A stretch of 64,000 nt of DNA. Source: Candidatus Magasanikiibacteriota bacterium. Lineage in GTDB: Bacteria > Patescibacteriota > Patescibacteriia > Magasanikbacterales > GWA2-37-8. Of the stretch, positions 7,226 through 60,923 are shown piece by piece (position 1 is the stretch's first letter; every line of letters starts with the position of its first letter). The DNA is taken from the NCBI GenBank assembly GCA_017991415.1, contig JAGOQR010000001.1, forward strand, positions 277,992-341,991. Reading direction: 5' to 3'. The notes under the pieces were generated by a model, which did not search any database, had not been told where the DNA came from, and was given only the letters and a program-made list of their open reading frames with translations. The translations under genes were made by a program, and so were the position numbers.

Positions 7226-8875
7226 ATGGCAATTAACGAAACTATAATTAAGTATCTTGTCCTTAACCCTCCCGAAACGGAGACTGATTTTAGCGAATCT
7301 CTACGAAGAATGTTACGCCAAGAAAATGATCCGAAAATTTCTATTCCTAACAAGCAAGAGCTGCTCAAATCATACCATAAATTAGTCCGCACGGGCAAGG
7401 TCACAAAAAGTATTCAACTAGAAAAAATCTTGCGTCGTCGCGCTGTACGTACCCTATCAGGGGTAACCATAATTACGTCGCTGGTAAAACCATTCCCATG
7501 CCCTGGGAAGTGCGTATATTGCCCGCTCGATGCTCGCATGCCGAAGAGTTATTTGTCCGACGAACCAGCTGCCGCCAGAGCTCTATCCTTGGAATTTAGC
7601 CCCTATGACCAAATGGCCAAGCGCATTGAGGCTTTAGAGAACAATGGCCACCCTACCGATAAGGTAGAGCTTATTATTAAAGGTGGCACTTGGAATTCAT
7701 ATCCTCTACCCTACCAATATTGGTTTATTCTCAAATCTTTTGAGGCGGCCAATCGAACTGGAAAGAAAAATAAAACAAGAGCTACCAAACTACATGAAAA
7801 CTCTTCGGTTAGTAAACTTCGGGCTGAACTAGCTAAACAACAAAAAATTAACGAAACTGCTAAACATAGGATTATCGGCTTAACCCTCGAAACCAGACCC
7901 GACTGTGTTAACGCACGTACTGTTTGGCAAATGCGAGAAATGGGTTGTACTCGTATTGAACTTGGTATCCAGCATACTAATGACACTATCTTAAAACTCA
8001 TAAAACGGGGTCATGATAATGCCAGGTCAAAACTAGCTACCAAACTACTCAAAAACTGTGGCTACAAAACCGACTTCCATCTTATGCCGCAGCTCCCTGG
8101 AGCTGACCCTGCTACTGACCTGGCTATGATGATGGCAGTTTTTGAAGATCCTGGATTTAGACCAGATATGATTAAGGTATATCCTTGTTCAGTAATCAAA
8201 AACTCTGAATTATATGATTGGTACAAAGAAGGAAAATATAAAGCCTACCCAACAGAGGATTTGCTCCAAATGTTAAAAAAATTCAAACCACATGTACCTC
8301 GTTACTGCCGCATCTCTCGCCTCATTCGTGATATACCAGGTCAATATATCGAAGATGGCAATAAAACCACCAACCTACGCCAGGTAATTCAAGAGCAGAT
8401 GAAAAAAGAAGGCACTAGGTGTGTTTGTTTGCGCTGCCGAGAAATTGCTCATGCAGATATTTCCCAAATAAAGGACTTAACCCCACGTTTATTTGTTGAT
8501 GAATACGAAACCCTTGGTGGCACAGAATACTTTTTATCTTTCGAAGATGCAGATAGATTGGTCATATTTGCCTTTTGCCGTTTACGACTGGTAGATAAAA
8601 GCGATGCTAAACAAGATAAAAAGCTTATTCCATTTCCTGCGTATATCCGCGAACTTCATACGTATGGCCAGTTAGTAAAAATTGGTAAACAAGAATTGGA
8701 TTCTAGCCAACACAAAGGCTTAGGAAAAAAACTAGTAAAAATGGCAGAAAAAATTACCAAAGATCATGATATAAAAAAACTAGCTGTGATTTCGGGAGTA
8801 GGTGTGCGAGACTATTATCGCCACCTAGGATACAAGCTAGAAAATACCTATATGGTTAAAAAACTAATAAAGTAG
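7226..8875 (+). CDS. elp3: Elp3-family tRNA uridine(34) carboxymethyl-modifying enzyme (radical SAM plus GNAT)
   Basis: Radical-SAM CPGKCVYCP cluster followed by YLSDEPAAARA; GHPTDKVELIIKGGTW; C-terminal GNAT box SQHKGLGKKLVKMAEKI. These match eukaryotic and archaeal Elp3 signatures closely. Start moved to ATG 7226 (MAINET). Confidence 0.85.
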   Translation: MAINETIIKYLVLNPPETETDFSESLRRMLRQENDPKISIPNKQELLKSYHKLVRTGKVTKSIQLEKILRRRAVRTLSGVTIITSLVKPFPCPGKCVYCPLDARMPKSYLSDEPAAARALSLEFSPYDQMAKRIEALENNGHPTDKVELIIKGGTWNSYPLPYQYWFILKSFEAANRTGKKNKTRATKLHENSSVSKLRAELAKQQKINETAKHRIIGLTLETRPDCVNARTVWQMREMGCTRIELGIQHTNDTILKLIKRGHDNARSKLATKLLKNCGYKTDFHLMPQLPGADPATDLAMMMAVFEDPGFRPDMIKVYPCSVIKNSELYDWYKEGKYKAYPTEDLLQMLKKFKPHVPRYCRISRLIRDIPGQYIEDGNKTTNLRQVIQEQMKKEGTRCVCLRCREIAHADISQIKDLTPRLFVDEYETLGGTEYFLSFEDADRLVIFAFCRLRLVDKSDAKQDKKLIPFPAYIRELHTYGQLVKIGKQELDSSQHKGLGKKLVKMAEKITKDHDIKKLAVISGVGVRDYYRHLGYKLENTYMVKKLIK

Positions 8876-13574: not shown

Positions 13575-14027
13575 TTACTTGTTAGATAATTTTTTTAATT
13601 CTTTTTCAAAAGTCCGAACATCTCTAAAATCACGATAGACGCTTGCAAATCTGATGTAGGCAACTTTGTCGAAACCTCGTAAATGTTTTATAACTAACTC
13701 ACCTAAATCTTTGCTCGAAATTTCTTTGGCTTTCTTTTTTTGAATATCTCTTTCTATGGCGTGTATTAACCTGTGAAAAGCATCTCGAGTATACGGACGT
13801 TTTGTTAAAGACATTCGTATTCCACTTTCTATCTTGTCTCTCATATAGGTTTCTCGATGGCCATCACTTTTAACAACGATTACATCCAAAAGCTCCATCT
13901 CTTCTACAGTCGAAAATCGGTACTGACACTTGTCACACTCACGACGACGACGAATAGACATGTCATCTTCGGCTGGACGCGTATCTACGACACTTGTTTC
14001 TGTATTGTTGCAAATTGGACAACGCAT
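13575..14027 (-). CDS. nrdR: transcriptional repressor NrdR
   Basis: N-terminal zinc ribbon MRCPICNN...CDKC followed by an ATP-cone domain (KRDGHRE-like SDGHRETYMRDKI). Confidence 0.9.
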   Translation of the reverse strand: MRCPICNNTETSVVDTRPAEDDMSIRRRRECDKCQYRFSTVEEMELLDVIVVKSDGHRETYMRDKIESGIRMSLTKRPYTRDAFHRLIHAIERDIQKKKAKEISSKDLGELVIKHLRGFDKVAYIRFASVYRDFRDVRTFEKELKKLSNK

Positions 14028-14104
14028 ATATTTATGCAAATATTATACCTCGCGCCATTTAATAAAACAACACCCTTGAAATGAGTGTTGTTTTTTATAT
14101 AACA

Positions 14105-23472: not shown

Positions 23473-26400
23473 TTACAAACCAAGCAACGACTGAATCTCG
23501 CTCAAATCTCTCAGTCGTATATAATTTCTTTTTAACTTATCAATCTGCACCGAACATACTTCTCCATTGTTACAGTCTAAATCTGTTTGACAGGCTGTTG
23601 TAGCACCAGGATTTTCCATAGTTGCTCCACAATAGCCATAATTAGTTAAGTTAGTGTTAAAGCTTAGATTACTAATTAATTGCTCAAACACCGCTCTAGT
23701 CTCGGATTTAGCATCCGCATTAATACTAAACAGGTAGATATTAGAGAATAAATTATATGAGGTGTCAGAATAATTGAGTGCATCCACATAAATATTATTT
23801 CCATCAGTTAAAGCATCATATCCATCTATTTTTGTAGTCTGCATATTGCCAGTAAAGCCTTGCCCGCCAAGAGCACGGTCGTTTTCAAACCACTGCGAAA
23901 CTGTTAAATGTTGCGGATTAGAGAAAACAGAAATACCAATCGCATCATTATTTTTAGCATTGGTAAAGATAAATCTTTTGAGACTTGATGTAGGACTATC
24001 TGCCACCACAGGAGCGTCTGCTTGCACCGCTGGTCGTAAATAAGGAAGGTCGTCAGAAACACCAAACACACCTTTATCCGCGCAGTAGTATGTTCTAAAG
24101 TTAAAATAGCCACCAGCCTGAGAAGACGGAATTGTAAACCCATTAAATGTATCTAACGATAAATCGTACTGATCATTATTATTTAACTTATCTTCATATG
24201 GGAAAATAATAAATGGACCATTACCACCGATATATAAATCTTTAGGCGGCCATGGATTCTCGCATAAAAACACAATCGCTCTTGACTTGCCTGTAGCTAC
24301 TAAACCAGATTGCGAGGAATAGCTATTATCTGTTATAACTGCCGAAGCTCGAACATCAATTTCGCCATTACGATTTTGAGCAGTAATAATATTTAGAGAA
24401 GAAGTAGTGCTAATCAAATTAACATACGGATTTCCAACAGGCTGCCATAAATAATTCCAAGAATAATAGCCTGGGATCGGCTGAATTCGAGCCGAATTAC
24501 TACTGTAGGCCGAAGCCAACAAGGTAGAACTGGCATTAACTCGGTTGAAATATACTTGCGACGGTTCTACCGAAACCTTCTCAACTTCACAAATATTAGT
24601 TCCTGTAATAAATTTCCAGCTGATTGGCTTGGTAGTGTTGCCGTTATTACCAATTTTCATACCCTGTTTACTTGCAATAACATCTTTTAAAGCAACGAAA
24701 TAATCCGAATCAACAGCAAGTGGTTTTGAAAGTTTGAAGACTACTTTGCTGAGCGAATTACTAATAGGCTCTACATCTGCTTGTCCGATATCTTCGCCCG
24801 CACACCATCTCGTAGAACGAATTTCTGTACGCAAAGCCTCTACAGACTGACCAGAAATACTTCTAAAGAAATTAACTACTCGAACAATAATTTTCTTATA
24901 CCAAGGTATATTACTAGACGAATCAGATTGCGCAGCAAGGGCTAAAGCAGTAACATCTTCACCAGTAGCGCAGGTAGAAGAGGTTGTGCCTTTAGCAACT
25001 ATCACATTATTACGAACCGTTGCAGGATCAATTTGCTGGTCAAATACTGCTTCAATAGACGTATTTGGACAAATATTAAACCTAGCGGTAGAAGTAGATC
25101 CCGGAAATACATTTAATAATTTTGGACGCATATAACAACACCCGTTATTCGCCACGGCCCAACCTGACCCCATTCTTGCCTCGCACTGCGCATCCGTTGA
25201 ATAACCACATTGAATTACAAATTCACCACTATCAGAAATACTACCACTCGTCGTATTTTCATTGGTACTGGCGATAATACTGCTTTTTTGAGTAGCAGGA
25301 ACTCCTGTTGGAGTGCCCAATCCTACACCTGTTACTAAAGCCCAAGGATTTACTCCATTATGGACACTTGAAAGATTTGTTTCACAGAATGCGTCCTCAC
25401 CTATCCCCGCAACACCATCCCCACATAAAGAGGGCGCTGTGTACAATAAAGACGAACCACTATTTTGTCTATCTGAACCACAGCCTTCACTTCCAGAAGC
25501 ACATTCGGCATGAGTACTATCTTTATATAGACAGAAATTGTCACACCAATCCGCTTTTCTTCCACCCCCTAAATCACAACCAGCATCTTCATCAGGACTC
25601 ATAACACCATCACCACAACGACTTACTGCGCCTTTACACGCAGCATCAAAAGCACCTTGAGCAAAACCTCCCTTACTCGCTGCATTAGCATAACACCAAG
25701 AATTTGAAAGTTTACTACCCTGATGTAAACAATTCTGAGAACAATTCATACTTGAAGCTGAAGATGTTGCAGAAGAAGCAATACCTAAATCACAATCCTC
25801 TCCTAATCCAACTGAACCATTACCACAAATAGAATCATTTACCGAACTAGCGGCTGTAGAAGCAGCAGATCCTGTTCGCAAACAATTATTTGTACAGCCA
25901 GCTGCAGAAGCAGGTATACCTGGATCGCAATTTTCACCAAGGTTTGGCTCAAAAACCCCATTACCACAAGTTGAAGTACTACTATTTCCTAATCGACGGC
26001 AATCCAAACCACAACCTGCTCCACTAAAAGGAGCATCACAGTCCTCACCGGCTTCTACCACACCATTACCACAAACTGGTACAGCTGTTGCTACCACACT
26101 AATACTACTACCTTTTCTAACACAATTTTTATCACAATACGGATTATTACCACGACTACTAAAGCTTCTTACCCGAGCCACAACATTTGGAGCTGAGGAA
26201 ACATCCGAGGAGCTCCAATTCCAACTCACAGACCAAGGATTTAACTTTTGACCTTGAGTGCTACAAGTATCTGGAGAAGAATAAGGCTGGGCATTGTACA
26301 GTTTTTTACTATCAACAGAATCAGCAATAAATGTTTGCGGCAAAACATCCACCCGACTTATTTTACATTTTTCTGCTTTGGTTTTGAATCTCCAGCTAAA

Positions 26401-29400
26401 TTCTTTATTGTATGGCTTGGAGAATGTATTAGGATCTCCCAAACGAGAAGCGGACCATAATAAATTTGGTGAATTAGTATCTGTGCTTGAAGCTGACAAA
26501 ACAACCTTGTAAATAGTATTTGGTTCTAGCTCAGAAGAATCAAGAGTTGAGTTGGCAATTTTTAAAACTTTATAATTTTCAGCGCCATCTAAAACGACAT
26601 CTACAGCCACTAACACTGGTGTGGTGCTCAAACAATTTTCGTCATTACATTTTAATAATTTTATTGGACCACTAATCGCAGACCCAGGCAAATTTCTTCT
26701 TGACATAGTGGTATTAAAACGAACACCTACTTCGGAGTTTGTACATGACTCCAAACATTTTGGCCAAAAATCTACCACTTCAGGATTATTTAAATCAATA
26801 GTAAGCGGACTTACTCCGATGTATGTAGAAGAAGCAATGGTGGCTTGCGCTGAAATATTTATACTATTATTTGGATTTACCAAGCCTACCCCTACCGTAT
26901 TAGCTAAGGCCGAAACTTTTGCTGAATCGTTATTAGTTGAATAAATATCAGCATACGTATTATTTTGAGTATCCCAAGTCCAATCAAACGCATCGGTATT
27001 CATAACCACACAATGCTGTGTCGTTAAACCATGACCACTATATACCACATCTTCACCGTCGCTAGCTGCGGTCTGGCGATGTTTGATAGGCTCTTCTAAT
27101 ACAGAGGTCCAATAACTATACGGGGTAATAACCACCTTTTTCATTCTGCAATCTTGAGAATCAGCTCGAAAAACAAAGCAATACGCAGAATTTGGACCAC
27201 AAGGTTTATCTTGGGCTAGTGGAACTGTGGAAGTGCCAACACCCGCACTAATACCTGACTTTAAAATAACTTGATACCAGGTATTATCTTTCCATTTTCC
27301 ACTATTATAGGCAGCATCTGGATTAAGTTGTAAATAGCTAGTATTTTCTGTGCTGAGAGCAGGGTCTAAGTCTCCTACACCACTAACTGGAACAATTTGA
27401 GATGAGGTACACGTTCGAGCTGCCTCATCTATTGTATTGGCCTGACATTCATTAATAACAAAATTCGATCGAGGAATATTGTTTATATTTGGAGAACTAA
27501 ATTCCACCACAACCGAAGCAGTACGACAAATATTATGATGGGAATCATTTGTAGAAACATCCCACTGAGCACTTGGGGACGGACTTGGAATATTTAAACC
27601 CAAATCTGTATTATTATCACATCTTTCTATAACACGAGGCACGCGCGGTATGTCTTTCGTGCTTATTCGCCAAATATACCCAGCTGAAAAAGTCTCCCCT
27701 TCACACAATTCATTGGTTGGTCGACACAAACCAGCTTCAGACCCAGAAACACAACAATGAGTATTTGGAACAGTACAGGTATTATTATTTCGAACACAGT
27801 CGAGCACAGAAAAATTAGCGGGATTGCTTATTCTATTATCCGAAGCTCTTGATACTACTACTGGCCCACTACGAGTACCAAGTGGTGGCAAGGTCGAGAC
27901 TGATTGACCAACAATCAAATTTGATACTGTAGACAAACTAGATAATAAGCGACCAGAGACAGCTGTTGGAGAGGCACCTTCAGTCCAAAAATAAACAGAT
28001 GGATTTGGCCCAAAGTATTCTCCTGTAATTTGTATTTTAGGAGCATCCGCAGAAAATGGTACTGGCCCCGACAGCGGATTAATATTACAGATACCCGGAT
28101 TTGGCTCGCCACTATCTAAGTTGAAAATTGGCCCAATCTGACTCCATCCTTGCGAAGCATCTGCAGGACGAACTTGCACAAAATAACTTTTACCAGCCTC
28201 ACCACTTCCAGAAGGGAATTTTACAATTATTTGATTATTTGACCACGTATTACGACATCCAACAGGAAAATTAAAATTTCCTTCGATAGCATCACCAGGC
28301 TGACCATTTACGTTTTCTTTAAACCAAACTCTACCAATTTGATTACCAAAATTATTACCGCTAATTGTTATATACGATCCTTTAGCTCCATGATCTGGAG
28401 AAATTTCAGAAATTACTGGGGCAGAATCACTTAGGCCTTGGTCTACAAAAAATCTAACACTATTACTCTCTAAATTATTTTGAGTAATAGCAACACCTAC
28501 CGGACCATTGTTAAGTAAAGGCACTCTTGTTCTTACCAAAGTATCAGTCCAATTTGCCAAGGTAGTTAAAACATTTTGACCAGCAAAAGATACTTGCCCA
28601 GGCGCATTTCCCAATCTTTTTCCTACAAGCGAAACTTCTGTACCAGGTAAACCATTAGCAGGATTAACCGAACACAAGCCAGGACGAACCAAATTATTAA
28701 CTTCGAAATCACTAATACGTGGACCAAAATTATCATCAGTAGAATCAATAAATTTACCTGCACTTGTTGTTGCTGTCTCAACCCTAATTGAGCCACTGGT
28801 CGCATTAGGTGGAACTTCTGCAATAATTTGCCAAGGCTTCCAATTTGACGACCCGCAGGCAGTAGCGAGCGGAGCTTCAATATTATTTATAAAAACTTTT
28901 CCAGGGTTAGTACCAAAATAACTTCCAGAGATTGTTACAAGAGTTCCTGGCCCACCAGACAAAGGAGAAACATTATTAATTCTCATTTTATCTATACAGG
29001 TACCTGCTTGTGTATCACAATAGCCACTACTACACTGCGTATTAGTTGTACAAGCTGATCCTGGACAAGCGCCACACTCACCACCACAAGCCGGAGGACC
29101 AGCTTGCACCTCTCCTAAATCTGATTGCAGATTACCATCAAAACAGTGCTGCGGTAATAAATTTACTTTTGTGCTTGTTGTATAAGAAAGGGCTGACCAA
29201 TCATAACCTGTTGCAGAAAGTGTATGTTCCCCCACTCCAATACCAGTTGTTGGCCAAGCAACTACCACCGAACCCGATTGCTGACAACCTGAAATAGTTC
29301 TACTGCCAACAAAATAACTATCTGCGCTGAGATCTATTTTTTGAACACCATTATCGTCGGTATATCGTACTGTTACTGGCACCGAAGATCCTGATTGCAA

Positions 29401-30261
29401 TAAATCAGAAGCAATTGGTTCAATTTTTATTTCTGGAGGCAACCTATCTACACCCTCTCCTGTAGTAAATTCTACATTTCCACAACCAGCTCTAATAGCA
29501 CAATTTAAGGTCATTTGCCCATCTAAATTTTTGACTGCGCTTGGATTTTTAAAATGCAAAATATATTTAGTAGAAGCAGCCAAACAATCTGCAGCACCAC
29601 TACCACAATCACCCGCTGGTACAAAGGCAGCAGTATTTTCTGTTAACAAACTCCATTGCCCCGCCTGCTCTTGTCCACCTTCTGTTTGCACTACTATATT
29701 ACCATCAAGAGTTCTTACATCTACAGCTCTATTAAAAGTAACCGTCACGTGAACATTGCGAATACACATAGCGCCTCCTTGTGGCAGGCTATCAACATAA
29801 AAAATTCCAGATGGAAAATATGGATTGTCACCTGTTGGTGAACCATTACCAGAATTAAAATCACCGCCAGTGGCATCGACTAGTCTACTAATAACAAAGC
29901 TAGCAATAGCATAGGAAGACAAAATTATAACAAGACCAATAACCGCATTAAGTAAAATCTTCTTAGCTTGAGAAACTTTCTCCTCATCACCACCAGAAGT
30001 CATCCAAACAACCCCGCCATATAAAATAAGTGCCAACGCAACTATACCAAGAAGCCCCAAAGCTGTGCGAATAATTCGCGCAACTACTAATCGTATGTCT
30101 GTAGATGGTAGGCCAATATTATTTTCTATTGGCTGAAGCCCCAAATCTGGAGCGCTCGTTGTTTGAGCCAAAACAAAATCTTTACCAAAAAACAAACTAA
30201 CGCCAACAAGTATTGCAAACAAAGACAGGAAGATAATTTTTTTTACTTTATTTTTTTCCAT
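23473..30261 (-). CDS. giant 2262-aa surface protein with a VirB2/TrbC-pilin-like N-terminal module plus IPT/TIG-like domains and Cys-rich repeats
   Basis: N-terminal signal peptide (cleavage near AQT), then two hydrophobic helices joined by a VWMTSGG loop, mirroring VirB2. Repeated P-x-S-G-P-x-G-T-x-V-T-I-x-G-x-x-F segments (IPT/TIG-like). Five tandem CGNG-x-E-CD Cys-rich repeats near residues 1397-1630. An SD-like AAGGAG lies 8 nt upstream of the ATG. Confidence 0.6.
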   Translation of the reverse strand: MEKNKVKKIIFLSLFAILVGVSLFFGKDFVLAQTTSAPDLGLQPIENNIGLPSTDIRLVVARIIRTALGLLGIVALALILYGGVVWMTSGGDEEKVSQAKKILLNAVIGLVIILSSYAIASFVISRLVDATGGDFNSGNGSPTGDNPYFPSGIFYVDSLPQGGAMCIRNVHVTVTFNRAVDVRTLDGNIVVQTEGGQEQAGQWSLLTENTAAFVPAGDCGSGAADCLAASTKYILHFKNPSAVKNLDGQMTLNCAIRAGCGNVEFTTGEGVDRLPPEIKIEPIASDLLQSGSSVPVTVRYTDDNGVQKIDLSADSYFVGSRTISGCQQSGSVVVAWPTTGIGVGEHTLSATGYDWSALSYTTSTKVNLLPQHCFDGNLQSDLGEVQAGPPACGGECGACPGSACTTNTQCSSGYCDTQAGTCIDKMRINNVSPLSGGPGTLVTISGSYFGTNPGKVFINNIEAPLATACGSSNWKPWQIIAEVPPNATSGSIRVETATTSAGKFIDSTDDNFGPRISDFEVNNLVRPGLCSVNPANGLPGTEVSLVGKRLGNAPGQVSFAGQNVLTTLANWTDTLVRTRVPLLNNGPVGVAITQNNLESNSVRFFVDQGLSDSAPVISEISPDHGAKGSYITISGNNFGNQIGRVWFKENVNGQPGDAIEGNFNFPVGCRNTWSNNQIIVKFPSGSGEAGKSYFVQVRPADASQGWSQIGPIFNLDSGEPNPGICNINPLSGPVPFSADAPKIQITGEYFGPNPSVYFWTEGASPTAVSGRLLSSLSTVSNLIVGQSVSTLPPLGTRSGPVVVSRASDNRISNPANFSVLDCVRNNNTCTVPNTHCCVSGSEAGLCRPTNELCEGETFSAGYIWRISTKDIPRVPRVIERCDNNTDLGLNIPSPSPSAQWDVSTNDSHHNICRTASVVVEFSSPNINNIPRSNFVINECQANTIDEAARTCTSSQIVPVSGVGDLDPALSTENTSYLQLNPDAAYNSGKWKDNTWYQVILKSGISAGVGTSTVPLAQDKPCGPNSAYCFVFRADSQDCRMKKVVITPYSYWTSVLEEPIKHRQTAASDGEDVVYSGHGLTTQHCVVMNTDAFDWTWDTQNNTYADIYSTNNDSAKVSALANTVGVGLVNPNNSINISAQATIASSTYIGVSPLTIDLNNPEVVDFWPKCLESCTNSEVGVRFNTTMSRRNLPGSAISGPIKLLKCNDENCLSTTPVLVAVDVVLDGAENYKVLKIANSTLDSSELEPNTIYKVVLSASSTDTNSPNLLWSASRLGDPNTFSKPYNKEFSWRFKTKAEKCKISRVDVLPQTFIADSVDSKKLYNAQPYSSPDTCSTQGQKLNPWSVSWNWSSSDVSSAPNVVARVRSFSSRGNNPYCDKNCVRKGSSISVVATAVPVCGNGVVEAGEDCDAPFSGAGCGLDCRRLGNSSTSTCGNGVFEPNLGENCDPGIPASAAGCTNNCLRTGSAASTAASSVNDSICGNGSVGLGEDCDLGIASSATSSASSMNCSQNCLHQGSKLSNSWCYANAASKGGFAQGAFDAACKGAVSRCGDGVMSPDEDAGCDLGGGRKADWCDNFCLYKDSTHAECASGSEGCGSDRQNSGSSLLYTAPSLCGDGVAGIGEDAFCETNLSSVHNGVNPWALVTGVGLGTPTGVPATQKSSIIASTNENTTSGSISDSGEFVIQCGYSTDAQCEARMGSGWAVANNGCCYMRPKLLNVFPGSTSTARFNICPNTSIEAVFDQQIDPATVRNNVIVAKGTTSSTCATGEDVTALALAAQSDSSSNIPWYKKIIVRVVNFFRSISGQSVEALRTEIRSTRWCAGEDIGQADVEPISNSLSKVVFKLSKPLAVDSDYFVALKDVIASKQGMKIGNNGNTTKPISWKFITGTNICEVEKVSVEPSQVYFNRVNASSTLLASAYSSNSARIQPIPGYYSWNYLWQPVGNPYVNLISTTSSLNIITAQNRNGEIDVRASAVITDNSYSSQSGLVATGKSRAIVFLCENPWPPKDLYIGGNGPFIIFPYEDKLNNNDQYDLSLDTFNGFTIPSSQAGGYFNFRTYYCADKGVFGVSDDLPYLRPAVQADAPVVADSPTSSLKRFIFTNAKNNDAIGISVFSNPQHLTVSQWFENDRALGGQGFTGNMQTTKIDGYDALTDGNNIYVDALNYSDTSYNLFSNIYLFSINADAKSETRAVFEQLISNLSFNTNLTNYGYCGATMENPGATTACQTDLDCNNGEVCSVQIDKLKRNYIRLRDLSEIQSLLGL

Positions 30262-32408: not shown

Positions 32409-32648
32409 TTATCTACCAAATTTTTTTGTTTCTTCTGGCATCTGTCCGATTTTTTTCAAGTATTCAATTTTTTGAGATACAGCCAAGCGATGCAAAGCAC
32501 TCTTCTTTCGCATGTTCTTATTTTTTGGCCTTTCATAAAATTGAATCTTTTTAACTTGCAATATTTTTCCGGATTGCTGCCAACGCTTCTTTACGCGGCG
32601 TAAAAAGGCTTCAAAAGATTCATTTTTCTTACGTTTTACTTCTGACAT
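32409..32648 (-). CDS. rpsU: 30S ribosomal protein S21
   Basis: MSEVKRKKNESFEAFLRRVKKRWQQSGKILQVKKIQFYERP matches the S21 pattern (xVxVxxNExxExALRRFKR...EfYEKP). Confidence 0.8.
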   Translation of the reverse strand: MSEVKRKKNESFEAFLRRVKKRWQQSGKILQVKKIQFYERPKNKNMRKKSALHRLAVSQKIEYLKKIGQMPEETKKFGR

Positions 32649-34839: not shown

Positions 34840-34916
34840 TGGTGGGCATGCCAAGAATCGAACTTGGGACCTCGTCATTATCAGTGACGCGCTCTAACCA
34901 TCTGAGCTACATGCCC
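34840..34916 (-). tRNA. tRNA-Ile (anticodon GAT)
   Basis: Reverse complement GGGCATGTAGCTCAGATGGTTAGAGCGCGTCACTGATAATGACGAGGTCCCAAGTTCGATTCTTGGCATGCCCACCA forms a cloverleaf with anticodon loop CTGATAA. CCA is encoded. Confidence 0.9.
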
Positions 34917-34979
34917 TTTTATAAATTTTATCTCGCCCTCGTGATTAGCTACTTAGACGACTGCACTCTAATTATCTGA

Positions 34980-34999
34980 CCTGCCTGCCGGCAGGCAGG
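34980..34999. repeat. perfect 20-nt GC-rich palindrome CCTGCCTGCCGGCAGGCAGG
   Basis: Exact 10+10 inverted repeat with no spacer, in an A+T-rich spacer between tRNA-Ile and tRNA-Val. Confidence 0.8.
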
Positions 35000-35003
35000 C
35001 AGG

Positions 35004-35014
35004 GCTACATGCCC
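35004..35014. repeat. 11-nt direct duplicate of the tRNA-Ile 5' end (GCTACATGCCC)
   Basis: Identical to 34906-34916, in the same orientation, immediately after the palindrome. Confidence 0.7.
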
Positions 35015-35077
35015 TTCTCACAAATGTAAATAATGAAATTCAGAATAACATTTTTTCATTAAAAAATCAAGTCCTTG

Positions 35078-35151
35078 TGGGTATATCCCGACTCGAACGG
35101 GAGACCTTCGCAATGTCAATGCGACGCTCTAACCAACTGAGCTATACACCC
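35078..35151 (-). tRNA. tRNA-Val (anticodon GAC)
   Basis: Reverse complement GGGTGTATAGCTCAGTTGGTTAGAGCGTCGCATTGACATTGCGAAGGTCTCCCGTTCGAGTCGGGATATACCCA forms a cloverleaf with anticodon loop TTGACAT. CCA is not encoded. Confidence 0.9.
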
Positions 35152-35221
35152 AAAACCAAGTCAAGTATACCAAATTACTATTAAAAATCAACTCCCTTTC
35201 AGTAGAACAAAGTCCCTATTT

Positions 35222-35262
35222 TTTAAACAAAAACAACCTTATTTCTAAGATTGTTTTTGTAT
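35222..35262 (-). terminator. Rho-independent terminator (A/U-rich hairpin acaaaaacaacctt...aaggttgtttttgt plus U-run) after small ORF 1
   Basis: Inverted repeat ACAAAAACAA/TTGTTTTTGT followed on the minus strand by TTTAAAAAAT. A near-identical copy lies at 35537-35575. Confidence 0.5.
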
Positions 35263-35320
35263 TGGCTACGAAGTTGTGCCTTCTACAACTTCGTAGCAAG
35301 TTGAGACGATGGTTGTTGGC

Positions 35321-35497
35321 TCAGGTCTTGGGAGGGTTAGAAGGACGGGGAAATCCCGCCATTGTCACCCGCATCTTAGCTTCGGGAGTTAACGTATCCC
35401 ACTGATCAGGGTCATTGAGATTCACACGATTCTCGGCTCCCAACGCTTTCACAAGGCGAGCCAATAACTCAGCTTTCGCATCTGTATCTTCGGCCAT
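35321..35497 (-). CDS. small G+C-rich ORF 1 (58 aa), unknown function, with strong SD
   Basis: AAGGAGG then a 9-nt spacer before the ATG. Encodes MAEDTDAKAELLARLVKALGAENRVNLNDPDQWDTLTPEAKMRVTMAGFPRPSNPPKT. Not in the supplied ORF track because it is under 60 aa. Sits in a locally G+C-rich island. Confidence 0.4.
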   Translation of the reverse strand: MAEDTDAKAELLARLVKALGAENRVNLNDPDQWDTLTPEAKMRVTMAGFPRPSNPPKT

Positions 35498-35536
35498 CGT
35501 TTGATTCCTCCTTGGAATTATATTATCACATTATTT

Positions 35537-35575
35537 AAAAAACAAAAACAGCCTTTTATAAGGTTGTTTTTGTAA
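35537..35575 (-). terminator. Rho-independent terminator after small ORF 2 (second copy of the A/U hairpin module)
   Basis: ACAAAAACAGCCTTTTATAAGGTTGTTTTTGT followed on the minus strand by a U-run. Confidence 0.5.
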
Positions 35576-35623
35576 TGGTCGCGAATGCTTTGGGGGAAGC
35601 ATCGCGACAAACCAAGACAATGA

Positions 35624-35827
35624 CTACCCGACAGGGGTGATCTCCTCATCAGCAGCGCCTGCTTCGGGCGGAACGACATCTTCTTCAGAAGCAGATGGTG
35701 GAGATGGATGCAGATGAGCATCCAGGTCAGCCTGCAGGCCGCGGATAACCGCCACAGTCACAAAGCTCTGCGGCTTTGATTGCGGAGGAACACTCCCCTT
35801 TGCCATACCCCGTTTTTGATCAGCCAT
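35624..35827 (-). CDS. small G+C-rich ORF 2 (67 aa), unknown function, with strong SD
   Basis: AAGGAGG then a 6-nt spacer before ATG (MADQKRGMAKGS...). Acidic, Pro-rich C-terminus. About mid-50s % G+C by eye, against A+T-rich flanks. Confidence 0.4.
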   Translation of the reverse strand: MADQKRGMAKGSVPPQSKPQSFVTVAVIRGLQADLDAHLHPSPPSASEEDVVPPEAGAADEEITPVG

Positions 35828-35871
35828 TGTCAACCTCCTTATATTTACCCTAGCATAAAATAAAAATAAAA

Positions 35872-35898
35872 CAAGAAGCGTCGTTAAGACGCTTCTTG
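35872..35898 (-). terminator. terminator-like hairpin downstream of the 16S rRNA (CAAGAAGCGTC-TTAAC-GACGCTTCTTG plus U-run)
   Basis: Perfect 11-bp stem followed on the minus strand by TTTTATTTTTATTTT. Confidence 0.5.
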
Positions 35899-36065
35899 AG
35901 CTTACCTGCTGGTAGGCAGGTTAACAATATAAATGTGACAAAGATTACACAATATTTTTCTATCCTTTAGAACTTTTTGATAAACCGAAGTTTATCGCAA
36001 GCGCCTCTGCAACTTGCGTTGCCAGGCTCGACAGAAATTCGCAGTCTTTCGACTGAGTATCTCCA

Positions 36066-37627
<1,562 letters not shown>

Positions 37628-37993
37628 GAGTATTGATTTTTGTTCACCCTACACAGCCGAAGCTGCAAGGGCTGATGAACAAGTTATCATTTTGGATTTA
37701 TTTATTATTTATACTCGAAATAACTCGAGTTTTTTCGGATAGACTTTTTTTGTGGTCTTTGTCACATTTATATTGTCAATGTACTGTTCCAATATTTATT
37801 TCTAAATTTGGAAAACTTTTTTCAATCTAGTTACCTGACTAGAAAGAAAAAAGAGAAATCAAATCTTGATTGCTCTTTTTTCTTTCCCTCGATTATTACG
37901 AGGCGGGCAGTTTCCAGATGGACTTGCCTGAGAATATTAGTTTTAAATGAAATGTTTTTTTGCGGGAATTTATTAGCTTTTTTTAACTTCTAC

Positions 37994-39002: not shown

Positions 39003-39752
39003 CTACTGTGGATTCTTCGGACCACGAGCGTCGAAGAAATCCGGGAACGTGGCGAAGAAGATCATCAGGATCGAGAGTGTCGTCGCGGCTCGGTAGAGAG
39101 CACCTTCATGCTCACCCTTGCGAATACGCCGCAAGAGCTCTGACACCTCAATGTACTCAGCCTTGTAGATCAGCTCGCCGTGCTGCGGATTGATGTTCTC
39201 GATCCGATCGAGATCGACTTCGACGAACAACAGGTCTGTCCAGCTTGCCACAAACGTTGGACAAGCGTTGTGGTAGGGGTGATTGGGCTGAAACACTTCC
39301 ACCACCGCAGCACCGGTCTCCTCACGAACTTCGCGCGTGGCAGCGTCTGGTCCAGACTCGAACTTCCCCACGACCTTGTCCTTGAAGCCCATGGGAATCT
39401 GACCAACCACGACCGCCTCACGACTTCTCGGATTGCGAGGATCATCTGCATGAGGCCGAGCCTCATGCATGACTCCGATCTTGATCGCGCCATCTTTGGT
39501 ACGACCCCAAGCCACGACGTTGACTGATGGCGCCTCACGATACTCCGGGCGATCAAACGCCGGCGTACCGTCGACACCACAAACAACAACGTTGCGCACT
39601 GCGCCGAACCGAGACGTTGCTTCCCAGTTAATACCCGCGAACTGGTCGCGCGCACCATCTGGACGATCCACGTAGAGGGTCCAGTTGACATCTGCCGGAC
39701 GACCAGCGAAGAACTCGGACCCCACATCGCTCGGTTTTTTTGTAGCACTCAT
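39003..39752 (-). CDS. G+C-rich NUDIX hydrolase (ADP-ribose pyrophosphatase-like), probably horizontally acquired
   Basis: Nudix box ...GKFESGPDAATREVREETGAAV. AAGGAG SD 8 nt before the ATG at 39752. The gene body is visibly G+C-rich, unlike its neighbours. It occupies the position rimM would hold between the KH-protein gene and trmD. The C-terminal roughly 20 aa extend into A+T-rich DNA, so the exact stop is uncertain. Confidence 0.55.
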   Translation of the reverse strand: MSATKKPSDVGSEFFAGRPADVNWTLYVDRPDGARDQFAGINWEATSRFGAVRNVVVCGVDGTPAFDRPEYREAPSVNVVAWGRTKDGAIKIGVMHEARPHADDPRNPRSREAVVVGQIPMGFKDKVVGKFESGPDAATREVREETGAAVVEVFQPNHPYHNACPTFVASWTDLLFVEVDLDRIENINPQHGELIYKAEYIEVSELLRRIRKGEHEGALYRAATTLSILMIFFATFPDFFDARGPKNPQ

Positions 39753-39944: not shown

Positions 39945-40298
39945 TTAGATGTTCAGATTGTCCACAGCACTTGTATCAATCATTTGGTTATCCATTGGCT
40001 GGCTATCCATTTGATTCATGCGAGGGGCTCTTCCACCAGCTGGCTCATTGATCTTTAGGTTAACGCGAGCATTGTGCTTAGCGCCAACAATCTTGAGCAA
40101 GGTGCGGATAGAGCGAGCGGTTTGACCCTGGCGACCAATCACATAACCCATATCGGCTGGATTGACATCGAGCGTGATCAAAACTCCTCTTTCGTCTATG
40201 GTGCGAACTGTTTTTACATCATTAGGATTGTTGACAATCGATTTTACGAGTGTCTCAACAAACTGTTGATCTGCTTCCATATGTAATTCATTCTTCAC
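39945..40298 (-). CDS. KH-domain RNA-binding protein (YlqC/UPF0109 family)
   Basis: VIGRQGQTARSIRTLL, a KH GXXG-type motif. Conserved position downstream of rpsP. Confidence 0.75.
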   Translation of the reverse strand: MKNELHMEADQQFVETLVKSIVNNPNDVKTVRTIDERGVLITLDVNPADMGYVIGRQGQTARSIRTLLKIVGAKHNARVNLKINEPAGGRAPRMNQMDSQPMDNQMIDTSAVDNLNI

Positions 40299-56760: not shown

Positions 56761-57525
56761 TCAGAACTTTCTATCTCGACCGACTATCATTTCTACCTTG
56801 CTATGAGCCAATTTTATTTTAACTTTCACCTCTTTCGACATCTTACCGTCAGCCTCTACGGAAAAGGCTTCTTTACCAGTAATAATCATTTCTTCAAAAG
56901 GAAAGATACTTGGCTCCTCATATTTATATCCCCACCAGCCACTTTTTGTCAATGGTCTAATAAAGGCCTCTAGCTTTCCATCCTGCGGATGAACCACGTG
57001 TTGCTCCGCGTCTTTCTTGTCTCTTTTCCAAAAAAAGGGCTGCAAATTACAGACAATCACTTCCATTTTATCCTTGGCAGTCACTTTAAACCGTTCATCA
57101 TAGACCACTTCTAAATTAGCAGGCATAACCCGCAACTGCGAAACAAAGTATCTATTATTCATCCAACCTACATCTAAGAATTCTTTACGACGACGTGATA
57201 AAACTGTACAAGCTTCTACGCCGACTGGAATACCTAATACTTCTGCAATGGTATTATTTGGCCCAACGGGTAAAAACCCAAACGTGCAGTCCGAGGTTGC
57301 GCTCCGAGAGAGTACTTGCCCAAAAGTTGCATCATTACCAACGATTACAATTGTTTTTGCTCCGCGTTTTATCTCGTCTTCAATGATTGATTTTGAATCA
57401 GTATAATTTTGCAAACGCAAAATCTTACCAGCTATACCATAGTCGGTAAGCACAACCTCCATTGAATGAATGATGGGAAGGAAATTTTTTTGACGTAAAA
57501 AATTGTCGTAGATATAAACATACAT
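56761..57525 (-). CDS. DAGK_cat-family lipid kinase (YegS/DgkB-like)
   Basis: GAKTIVIVGNDATFGQVL, a GGDG-type motif variant, with a nucleotide-binding N-terminus. Confidence 0.55.
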   Translation of the reverse strand: MYVYIYDNFLRQKNFLPIIHSMEVVLTDYGIAGKILRLQNYTDSKSIIEDEIKRGAKTIVIVGNDATFGQVLSRSATSDCTFGFLPVGPNNTIAEVLGIPVGVEACTVLSRRRKEFLDVGWMNNRYFVSQLRVMPANLEVVYDERFKVTAKDKMEVIVCNLQPFFWKRDKKDAEQHVVHPQDGKLEAFIRPLTKSGWWGYKYEEPSIFPFEEMIITGKEAFSVEADGKMSKEVKVKIKLAHSKVEMIVGRDRKF

Positions 57526-59888: not shown

Positions 59889-60923
59889 TCAGAACCTCGG
59901 ATGCTGACCGAGGTTGGGAGTGATACCCAGGAACCTTGCGCGTTGTTCAAACACGCCATAGCTCACCAGGGAGCTCCTACCGAACACCGACACCACCAGC
60001 GCCTCGAGGAGACAGCCGGGGATGTCACCCTGCTTGAAATCCGGCAAAAGCGGTAGGTACCGCAAGCCCTTGCCTTCTCCCTTGCTAGTAATCTTGCAGA
60101 CACCTGCAAGCTTGGCCCGCAAAGACTCTACCATCTCACGGCCCATCATCGGGTGGGTGTCATCAAGAACAACAACACCGTGCTTCAACTGCTCGATAGC
60201 AGCCTTGGCATCATCGCCCTTGCCCGTGAGAACAACAGCAAGATTCGCTTGCGCGAGGATCTCGCTGTTGCTAGTCTTCAACAACTTCCCTTCTCGCTCG
60301 TCGTAGCCATACCTGGGATCGAGCGCAATCACACAGCTAACACACTCTTCGCGGGCCAGCAGCCTGACGACCTCAGAACCAGTGTGACCAGCGCCACCAA
60401 TGACGGCGACAACCACACTCTTCCACGCACGCCCATCTTCTCGTTCGGGAAGACGATCTATGATTGCCTCCCTGACAGAGTTAAGCACCGTGTAGCAAGT
60501 GCCAAGCATCCCCGTCACACAAGGCTCGACAGGCGGCGCCTTTGATGCGGCAACAATCCAACCAGGCAATTGCCCAGCCAGTGCAATCACAGCGCTCGGA
60601 AAACGAGACTCGACCTCGCGAACGATCTCTAGAGCAAGGTGAGGATTCTTAACGATCTCCTCCCTGCTCTTAGTAGTGGCCAGGATCAAGCCGCGACGGC
60701 GCTCATGACCACTCTTGAAACGAAGGAACCCGATGAGCCCCAGCAGTCCGATGATTCGCTCAACGAACTTGGGCCAGCAGGCTCTCTTGTGACGCTCGTC
60801 CCCGTAGACGAGGAATACGAAATCCGGCTTGTAGACAAACCGAATGACGAGAAACCAGAGGATCTCCAGAGTGATGAGAAACCCCTGCCGAAAGAAGTTG
60901 ACCAGTAGCCGCTTGAGCGACAT
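59889..60923 (-). CDS. G+C-rich NAD(P)-binding Rossmann-fold protein with a hydrophobic N-terminal region (function unknown), probably horizontally acquired
   Basis: GGAGG SD 5 nt before the ATG at 60923 (the ORF track starts two codons earlier at GTG). Central VAVIGGAGHTGSEVVRLL dinucleotide-binding motif. Gene body is G+C-rich, flanks are A+T-rich. Confidence 0.45.
   Translation of the reverse strand: MSLKRLLVNFFRQGFLITLEILWFLVIRFVYKPDFVFLVYGDERHKRACWPKFVERIIGLLGLIGFLRFKSGHERRRGLILATTKSREEIVKNPHLALEIVREVESRFPSAVIALAGQLPGWIVAASKAPPVEPCVTGMLGTCYTVLNSVREAIIDRLPEREDGRAWKSVVVAVIGGAGHTGSEVVRLLAREECVSCVIALDPRYGYDEREGKLLKTSNSEILAQANLAVVLTGKGDDAKAAIEQLKHGVVVLDDTHPMMGREMVESLRAKLAGVCKITSKGEGKGLRYLPLLPDFKQGDIPGCLLEALVVSVFGRSSLVSYGVFEQRARFLGITPNLGQHPRF

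Follow-up and report, generated by a model that had tools for sequence, protein, structure and literature searches.

Autonomous modules made up of a promoter, an open reading frame (ORF) and a terminator, and set apart by their atypical composition, are found between the genes of lambdoid prophages, where they are known as morons (the Hendrix/Juhala literature). Two further kinds of unit invite comparison: integron cassettes, which carry small ORFs in tandem, each followed by an imperfect palindrome and typically without a promoter of its own, and orphan or de novo small protein genes, which are short and rapidly diverging and arise at variable intergenic sites. Here we describe a locus that has traits of each, in a 64,000-nt stretch of DNA (the window; 38.8% GC) from Candidatus Magasanikbacteria, a lineage of the candidate phyla radiation (CPR; Patescibacteria). 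Two small ORFs, designated ORF-B and ORF-A, lie there in tandem on the minus strand between the 16S rRNA gene and tRNA-Val(GAC), and each is preceded by a Shine-Dalgarno (SD) sequence. Judging from the sequence, we consider it probable that they are autonomous, SD-driven and fast-evolving genes of small cytoplasmic accessory proteins, situated at a variable hotspot between 16S and tRNA genes.

The most fitting description is a pair of chromosomal minigene cassettes that resemble morons, each closed on its 3' side by a dedicated double hairpin. As in the case of morons, a small ORF of atypical composition is provided with its own putative promoter and terminator, lies between conserved genes and is variably present in close relatives; conserved consensus elements and the GC excess mark each cassette as an autonomous unit, with promoter activity predicted. 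Unlike morons, the cassettes occupy a chromosomal 16S-tRNA spacer with housekeeping neighbours, they gave no convincing match to PHROGs and none to phage records or, in a scan for the AT-hairpin pattern, to viral contigs, and a dedicated 3' module, the double hairpin, is common to their unrelated ORFs. With integron cassettes they have in common (i) tandem small ORFs mostly devoid of homologues, (ii) an imperfect palindrome after each, (iii) a content that varies among relatives, and (iv) a 3' element that can be common to unrelated ORFs. However, the RYYYAAC/GTTRRRY core sites of attC are absent (the hairpin arms read GYYRCGA/TCGYRRC and ACAAAAACAAYCTTA/TAAGGYTGTTTTTGT), no intI was found by a Pfam scan of the stretch between 32.4 and 40.3 kb, and the cassettes here carry their own predicted promoter and a true U-tract terminator. 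The resemblance to orphan or de novo genes lies in the lack of homologues, the short length, proneness to disorder, high GC content, very fast divergence and variable intergenic site, whereas the expression signals are not weak and fortuitous but canonical, strong and kept between species.

We propose that the space separating the 16S terminator from the tRNA-Val promoter accommodates two autonomous minigene cassettes, each consisting, in this order, of an extended -10 promoter, an SD about 7 nt further on, an ATG with its small ORF, a GC hairpin and an AT-rich terminator (Table 1). The frame of the cassette (promoter, SD, ATG and both hairpins) would have been passed down and maintained by selection within a small Magasanikbacteria clade; the coding sequences inside would drift, or be replaced, so fast that orthologs are scarcely or not at all recognisable, and the 16S-tRNA spacer would act as a hotspot where accessory genes come and go. 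The putative -10 elements have the layout TGn-TAnnnT, approximately 7 nt before the SD, which is the same in other cassettes; their designation as promoters reflects a match to the consensus only. The relative L011 carries TGTTACGGT at the position homologous to the element of ORF-B, and the homologues of the ORF-A element read TGTGATATT (L005) and TGCTAAAAT (L004). Read-through from the 16S unit would be an alternative source of the ORF-B transcript.

The GC hairpins conform to the consensus GYYRCGA...TCGYRRC, with compensatory changes in basal pairs 2-4 (T-A/C-G, C-G/T-A and G-C/A-T), and a motif scan of the 64-kb window and of about 1.1 Mb of related loci found this motif to be confined to these cassettes. 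A covariance model of the double hairpin gave 65-87 bits on the cassettes from which it was built, 44-55 bits on three metagenome contigs that the AT-hairpin pattern had brought up, and no more than 34 bits on ordinary terminators and elsewhere. The metagenome scan with that pattern yielded seven stretches, three from the L005 organism and four from other contexts, and provided no relatives of intermediate divergence for an estimate of the ratio of nonsynonymous to synonymous substitutions (dN/dS). Since one of these contexts was rpmB, which in an unrelated contig ends with the same structure, the AT hairpin alone is a generic terminator.

Relatives were identified on the basis of HisS, and all proved to be Magasanikbacteria or Patescibacteria metagenome-assembled genomes. 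The order 16S-spacer-tRNAs-lepB-hisS-rpsU is retained throughout the phylum, with a spacer of approximately 190 bp to more than 5 kb. Many lineages have a baseline spacer of about 190-260 bp, and the segment in the window is an insertion relative to the roughly 200-250 bp typical of many Magasanikbacteria; L007 (16S 94% identical) represents this baseline, with a trailer stem, a terminator and a tRNA promoter but no ORF. Cassette flanks are shared with sister species at the same 16S-tRNA junction, and in the closest clade SD-led small ORFs come after the 16S terminator. In L011 (16S 97.5% identical) the same terminator, -10 element and SD are followed by an 87-aa ORF (7363-7626) and by the same double hairpin; this ORF, L011_87, is a weak positional ortholog of ORF-B, and L011 has the ORF-B-type cassette only. 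The promoter, SD, ATG, GC hairpin and AT hairpin of the cassettes of L004 and L005 align with those of ORF-A, the positional counterparts of which, at L004 593-775 and at L005 6257-6448, encode basic proteins. Other ORFs found in the same slots comprise 74 and 108 aa (L005), 95 aa (L004), 58 aa (L009) and 242 aa (L008), and every small ORF tested by blastp was a singleton. L005 and L008 carry 2.7-3.3 kb versions of the island, and the metagenome contig L087 has in the slot a membrane protein that appears by eye to be related to L005_108 and L008_242.

The first-pass annotation of this DNA had described a G+C-rich island holding two tandem minus-strand ORFs of 58 and 67 aa, each with a near-perfect AAGGAGG 6-9 nt from its ATG, the second peptide being acidic and proline-rich. 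All of this was borne out by computation: 49.4% GC was obtained for 35276-35850 vs 38.8% for the window (mean 0.389, sd 0.064, in 150-nt windows), and the lengths, coordinates, SD spacers and composition are those given in Table 1. The island is really two GC-rich ORF bodies (52% in ORF-A and 57% in ORF-B), because an AT-rich stretch of about 125 nt between the cassettes parts them. GC at codon positions 1/2/3 amounts to.59/.47/.49 in ORF-A and.75/.49/.47 in ORF-B, vs.50/.35/.31 (sd.05/.05/.07) in 48 long host ORFs, so the composition is atypical at all three positions; since GC at the third position (GC3) is raised alongside the other two, the excess reaches synonymous sites as well. No second copy of the ORFs or of the island DNA was found elsewhere in the window.

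SD strength was expressed as the predicted energy of the duplex with the 16S tail, in which the anti-SD is intact (GGATCACCTCCTTTCT), and the census covered the 64 kb of the window out of an 831-kb genome. None of the 46 AT-rich host genes reached -8 kcal/mol; their mean (-1.1) is even weaker than that of random window positions (-2.1). The host is not altogether devoid of SDs, as rpsU and two GC-rich genes also have strong ones. The heptamer AAGGAGG as such is not over-represented (8 copies vs 7.07 expected), and what is special is its placement, as only the copies of ORF-A and ORF-B are intergenic and stand at the correct distance from an ATG that opens an ORF of more than 50 aa. Scanning the window for strong SDs followed by an ORF revealed three further genes, namely rpsU, a NUDIX-domain gene and a 344-aa gene. 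Only four long AT-rich genes have values of -6 kcal/mol or stronger: 23473-30261 (-7.7), 13575-14039 (-7.3), 56761-57525 (-6.5) and 1340-1921 (-6.3). The first of these, a 2262-aa ORF on the minus strand, has its SD in the leader TAAGGAGTAGGAAGT-ATG and contains an internal AAGGAGG at 29774.

From these signals we infer that the promoters fire, that both ORFs are translated at a high level through SD-anti-SD pairing and that the products are functional accessory factors; the most plausible class would be lineage-specific regulatory or interaction proteins of an episymbiont. The coding nature of the ORFs gains support from the ATG-anchored frame, which is open nearly to the 3' hairpin in six of seven cassettes (five species); the ORF of L009 ends about 130 nt early, being open for 174 of 311 nt. 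The probability of such open frames is 0.002-0.07 per cassette and, combined by Fisher's method over the seven, ~1e-6. Moreover, SD and ATG are held in register across three species. ORF-B and L011_87 are 35% identical (global alignment z = 3.4, p = 0.0025 vs shuffles), with identities of.46/.49/.34 at codon positions 1/2/3.

Several points weigh against this interpretation. Each window ORF taken alone is barely longer than expected by chance (p ~0.07 each), and the combined p is somewhat inflated because the cassettes were partly found by a search for an SD plus an ORF. No similarity could be detected between ORF-A (pI, isoelectric point, 5.2) and its positional counterparts (pI 10.4 and 12.0), and a search for frameshifted homology to these basic proteins was negative in every frame. 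Between species, nucleotide identity is 65-79% in the flanks, 76% in lepB coding sequence and 59-66% in another intergenic region, but 51-56% in the ORF interiors, which diverge at an approximately neutral, saturated rate; because of this saturation, purifying selection on the protein sequences is not supported. Sequence and fold searches yield no function for either ORF, and the predicted transcription starts would place the SD at the extreme 5' end of the mRNA, which is unusual.

The ORFs might therefore be regarded as a decaying relic, i.e. the non-functional remainder of a larger accessory island, in which selection acts only on the terminators and promoters that shield 16S and tRNA transcription. 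The interiors, less conserved than ordinary intergenic DNA, the peptides without homologues and the individually modest open-frame probabilities would be in keeping with decay, as would the absence from the window of the 241-aa gene, the protease and the small lipoprotein that occur in the spacers of relatives. We nevertheless think a relic rather unlikely, given that SD and ATG have stayed in register, that six of the seven frames are open to the 3' hairpin, and that the similarity of ORF-B to its positional ortholog, though weak, is significant, with codon-position identity in the order 2 > 1 > 3. If the ORFs are not translated, what is left is a variable rRNA-tRNA spacer with conserved hairpins that serve as terminators and insulators, an ordinary finding. 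If, on the other hand, they are functional genes, as we prefer, a conserved and strong expression slot with fast-turning coding content in CPR bacteria may harbour lineage-specific factors for interaction or regulation, or be a place where new genes arise. The small proteins of these uncultured episymbionts with tiny genomes are almost unexplored.

Table 1. Features of the 16S-tRNA spacer and its surroundings (window coordinates)
Feature	Coordinates	Strand	Remarks
16S rRNA gene	36067..37626	-	Rfam RF00177, 1424 bits
Pre-16S processing stem, 3' arm	35921..35952	-	pairs with 37748-37779 in the 16S leader
20-nt palindrome	35900..35921	.	ACCTGCCTACCAGCAGGTA; insertion relative to L011, L005 and L009
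Intrinsic terminator of the 16S unit	35855..35898	-	CAAGAAGCGTC-TTAAC-GACGCTTCTTG, then U-tract
Putative extended -10 promoter of ORF-B	35847..35855	-	TGCTAGGGT; sequence prediction
SD of ORF-B	35834..35840	-	AAGGAGG, 6-nt spacer to ATG, -12.3 kcal/mol
ORF-B	35624..35827	-	67 aa, ATG start, pI 4.6, Pro/Ala/Asp/Glu-rich
GC hairpin 1, cassette-specific	35578..35608	-	GTCGCGA...TCGCGAC; compensatory changes
AT-rich terminator hairpin 1	35534..35573	-	ACAAAAACAACCTTA-TAA-AAGGCTGTTTTTGT, then U-tract
Putative extended -10 promoter of ORF-A	35522..35530	-	TGTGATAAT; sequence prediction
SD of ORF-A	35507..35513	-	AAGGAGG, 9-nt spacer to ATG, -11.2 kcal/mol
ORF-A	35321..35497	-	58 aa, ATG start, pI 5.2
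GC hairpin 2, cassette-specific	35265..35297	-	GCTACGAAGTTGT...ACAACTTCGTAGC
AT-rich terminator hairpin 2	35219..35260	-	ACAAAAACAATCTTA-GAAA-TAAGGTTGTTTTTGT, then U/A-tract
tRNA-Val promoter	35164..35191	-	TTGATT, 16-nt spacer, TATACT preceded by TG (promoter scan)
tRNA-Val(GAC)	35077..35151	-	downstream boundary of the island
rpsU (bS21)	32409..32648	-	strongest SD in the window, duplex -17.1 kcal/mol

A position of the ORFs inside the rRNA-tRNA transcription unit, which the first-pass annotation had found unusual, is not upheld by the boundaries of that unit. On the minus strand the 16S rRNA gene (37626..36067) is followed by a 915-bp spacer, tRNA-Val(GAC) (35151..35077), tRNA-Ile(GAT) (34916..34840), lepB, hisS and rpsU; the genes across 32.4-40.3 kb are rpsU, hisS, lepB, the tRNAs, 16S, trmD, the NUDIX gene and a KH-domain gene. 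The processing stem of the 16S precursor is a 32-nt inverted repeat, 88% complementary, and its core, TCTTTGTCACATTT, is kept in L003, L004, L005, L007, L009 and L011. Since its 3' arm sits there, the rRNA precursor reaches to about 35921, and the island therefore begins after the stem. This stem and a U-tract terminator precede ORF-B; the hairpin of the latter (35898-35872) has 11 bp with 6 GC pairs according to a terminator scan, and it is kept in L011 with the compensatory change of GCGTC/GACGC to GCATC/GATGC. The tRNA-Val gene has its own promoter, whose -35 region, CTTGATTTTT, was also found upstream of tRNAs in L007 and L003. Because the 16S unit closes upstream and the tRNA-Val promoter is separate, the ORFs lie outside an rRNA-tRNA co-transcript, and two hairpins come after each ORF as well.

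The possibility that the island is a product of chimeric assembly is excluded, because two independent assemblies have the same junction. One of them, L001 (Logan assembly SRR11088367), runs from the 3' end of 16S through both ORFs and tRNA-Val into the 5' part of tRNA-Ile on one assembly; the other, L002 (a contig of GCA_020054605.1), covers most of ORF-B, then ORF-A, tRNA-Val and tRNA-Ile, and differs from the window by one single-nucleotide polymorphism (Ala to Gly).

The GC excess could also suggest an older horizontal acquisition from a GC-richer, SD-using donor (a host bacterium or a mobile element), the SD and the codon bias having been carried in with the ORFs. Their GC and GC3 are far above host values, the two larger GC-rich genes (39003-39752 and 59889-60923) likewise have strong SDs, and the island adjoins tRNA genes, where a duplicated 5' fragment of tRNA-Ile and palindromes suggest past rearrangement. 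Yet the flanks are AT-rich, host-like and present at the same locus in sister species, so that any acquisition predates those species. A donor-like homologue was found neither among 5.8 and 1.84 billion proteins nor in phage records, and viral contigs searched for the AT-hairpin pattern yielded none either. In addition, the association of GC3 excess with SD strength is weak in 690 ORFs of related loci (rho = -0.11, p = 0.004), which means that the clean split of GC3 and SD seen in the window does not generalise strongly. An ancient transfer thus appears improbable to us, and the suggestion that the island is a foreign-cassette remnant peculiar to this genome fails, as the flanks and a weak ORF-B ortholog are common to sister species.

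Accessory protein genes are still the reading we favour, and the remaining alternatives concern the kind of product. The cassettes might be small RNA genes, non-coding or dual-function, of about 300 nt (acting, for example, through a perfect SD that titrates the 3' tail of 16S), with incidental ORFs. The units are compact from promoter to terminator, their 5' SD and 3' hairpin ends are better kept than the interior, and the 746-nt region as a whole has a more stable fold than its shuffles (z = -5.6). The extra folding energy is, however, due to the terminator hairpins; the ORF interiors fold like shuffled sequence (z = +0.55 and -0.74) and an Rfam scan of the island gave only matches with E >= 0.2, far under the gathering thresholds, which argues against a structured RNA. 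The conserved ATG spacing and open frames point in the same direction, and we attach a low probability to such RNA genes. A stretch of 20 nt in the interior of ORF-B is 75% complementary to the 3' region of 16S, a pairing which we judged to be due to chance.

Homologues of the two peptides were sought extensively, and the earlier impression that neither resembles anything recognisable was reinforced by protein and family searches. None were found among 5.8 and 1.84 billion proteins: in two word-indexed searches each query matched only itself, a profile of ORF-B and L011_87 recovered just those two proteins, and a full phmmer search of ORF-B against 1.84 billion representatives matched, apart from the query, only a proline-rich, low-complexity segment in a protein of 1852 aa. 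Searched against Pfam, NCBIfam, PADLOC and PHROGs, the two ORFs and those of relatives gave no match above threshold (the sub-threshold ones were CAP-ZIP_m, with 17.8 bits against a cutoff of 28.2, and one PHROG, E = 0.057), and neither tblastn against phage records nor the hairpin-pattern scan of viral contigs revealed a link with phages. According to sequence prediction both proteins are acidic and without a signal peptide, transmembrane segment or cysteine. A single-sequence AlphaFold2 model of ORF-A shows three helices (mean predicted local distance difference test score, pLDDT, 73.9), for which no fold neighbour was found, and for ORF-B disorder is predicted over most of the chain, together with a single helix (residues 22-39). 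A ribbon-helix-helix fold, considered for L004_60, L005_63 and ORF-B on account of a shared 'V-x-V-x-R-G-L', was rejected, there being no Pfam support and no significant similarity. Predicted tryptic peptides of ORF-B include GSVPPQSKPQSFVTVAVIR and GLQADLDAHLHPSPPSASEEDVVPPEAGAADEEITPVG, and those of ORF-A include AELLAR, ALGAENR and VNLNDPDQWDTLTPEAK.

Two adjoining small ORFs, the second with an acidic, proline-rich and disordered tail, had also called to mind a toxin-antitoxin pair or precursors of ribosomally synthesised and post-translationally modified peptides (RiPPs). Both ideas now seem hardly credible. The ORFs are not bicistronic: the 126 nt between them contain a GC hairpin, a U-tract terminator and a separate extended -10 element, and because two hairpins and a separate promoter intervene they do not form an operon. 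Furthermore, no family match was obtained in Pfam, NCBIfam or PADLOC, no fold match for ORF-A, and L011 manages with an ORF-B-type cassette only. As for RiPPs, the peptides contain no cysteine, their positional orthologs have no conserved core, and there are no adjacent genes for maturation, modification, transport or proteolysis, the neighbours being 16S, tRNAs, lepB, hisS and rpsU. Overall, of what had been suggested at first, small-protein genes that look genuine and efficiently translated, inserted relative to the baseline spacer, are retained; membership of the rRNA-tRNA unit, the toxin-antitoxin and RiPP proposals and a recent foreign cassette are not.

The scarcity of SDs in this genome recalls the Bacteroidia, where the anti-SD is sequestered by bS21, bS18 and bS6 and the translation of rpsU falls to ribosomes that lack bS21 (PMC7797042, PMC9976891, PMC13000453). 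In F. johnsoniae rpsU is essentially the sole SD gene, and its extended SD is required (PMC9976891). The window shares with them the near absence of SDs from its genes (0/46), the retained anti-SD CCUCC and an extended SD of rpsU; a handful of other genes, among them ORF-A and ORF-B, also have strong SDs. The rpsU leader reads AGAAAG-T-GAGGTGGACAT-ATG and forms a duplex with GGAUCACCUCCUUUCU, the extended SD being AGAAAG-T-GAGGTGGA. AGAAA[GC]nGAGGTGA or a close variant occurs upstream of rpsU in nearly all of 75 related Magasanikbacteria loci, and in 48 of them the SD is -10 kcal/mol or stronger; low scores mostly stem from the GTG in GGAGGTG having been taken as the start codon. The genome considered here differs in belonging to the CPR, and the SDs of ORF-A and ORF-B are of the ordinary 7-8 nt. 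Some Parcubacteria lack the anti-SD motif (PMC9297842), which is present here. A less basic C-terminal domain of bS21 with Tyr54, together with residues of the bS18/bS6 pocket, is a signature of Bacteroidia (PMC7797042); the C-terminal region of bS21 in the window, KNMRKKSALHRLAVSQKIEYLKKIGQMPEETKKFGR, is, as read from the sequence, still basic, with one Tyr and an acidic patch. The Bacteroidia signature also includes Phe50, Asn56 and Lys37 in bS18 and the C-terminal helix in bS6. In the literature searched we found no report of such an SD-poor signature with an extended rpsU SD for CPR bacteria.

By analogy, this signature suggests specialised translation of the SD-led genes. Magasanikbacteria ribosomes might, like those of Bacteroidia, normally ignore SDs, and the few SD-led genes might constitute an "SD regulon" read preferentially by 30S subunits with a free 16S tail, although we regard this as a rather doubtful proposition. 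Such a regulon would comprise the two minigenes, the GC-rich NUDIX gene and the 344-aa gene, its readers could be, for instance, bS21-free or newly assembled 30S subunits, and the 16S-adjacent cassettes would serve as expression slots whose output reports or modulates the state of the ribosome. On this view the double hairpin shared by the cassettes would be the hallmark of a system that exchanges ORFs or gives rise to new ones. If true, bS21-dependent specialised translation would extend to the distant CPR lineage and to more targets than rpsU. In a genome with essentially SD-independent initiation, the few SD genes (rpsU, the minigenes and two GC-rich accessory genes) form a defined and testable set.

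The NUDIX gene (39003-39752, minus strand, 249 aa) is GC-rich (GC3 0.59), with an AAAGGAG SD of -8.4 kcal/mol, its own TTGACA/TATAGT promoter and a GC-rich terminator, and it sits between the KH-domain gene (39945-40298) and trmD. This insertion is shared only with L011 (62% aa identity, vs 89% for trmD and 96% for the KH protein); the gene is not at that position in L007 and L009, and the protein has no relative in viral contigs. The 344-aa gene (59889-60923, minus strand; GC3 0.65) is also GC-rich and has the SD GGGAGGTGG (-13.5 kcal/mol); its only Pfam matches are weak ones to NAD-binding families (Semialdhyde_dh/DapB_N), and it appears to be a further accessory or foreign gene against the AT-rich, SD-less background.

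The spacers of relatives (L005 6672-7800, L008 1141-3177, L004 1000-2060, L011 7774-7962 and L015 401-1270) hold other genes, all missing from the window: (i) a conserved SD-led 241-aa ORF on the same strand, (ii) a probable lipoprotein of 289-312 aa on the opposite strand, which to the eye resembled a trypsin-type protease, and (iii) a glycine-rich small lipoprotein of 58-62 aa (MxxxxxVLxxLxxxxxxxxCGRGGG...). A C-terminally membrane-anchored family (EGDxIsxxQ[IL]AE...EENxQ, then a transmembrane segment) takes the first cassette slot in three organisms (L005 5777-6103, L008 284-1012 and L087, minus strand, ~1880-2300), with kinship judged by eye. Some cassette ORFs therefore appear to be kept between species, unlike ORF-A and ORF-B.

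The palindrome ACCTGCCTrCCrGCAGGyA (20-24 nt, perfect) occurs in only two copies in the window. The first (35900-35921) directly follows the 16S processing stem; the second (34979-35000), within 34979-35016, splits a decayed second copy of tRNA-Ile, comprising its 5' two-thirds (GGGCATGTAGC, the palindrome, then TCAGATAATTAGAG...), which sits just upstream of the intact tRNA-Ile. Both insertions are also present in L003 (213-260 and 94-116), and the palindrome may be a miniature palindromic mobile element targeting the tRNA D-arm. The tRNA genes of the window (34840-35191), compared with those of L003, L004, L005, L007 and L011, are in the order Val then Ile, 160 nt apart, each with its own copy of the CTTGATTTTT promoter, an order that L008 and L009 have too; in the closest relatives Ile precedes Val at a distance of 8-18 nt, behind a single promoter. 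As both the order and the promoter arrangement vary among relatives, the locus has been rearranged repeatedly.

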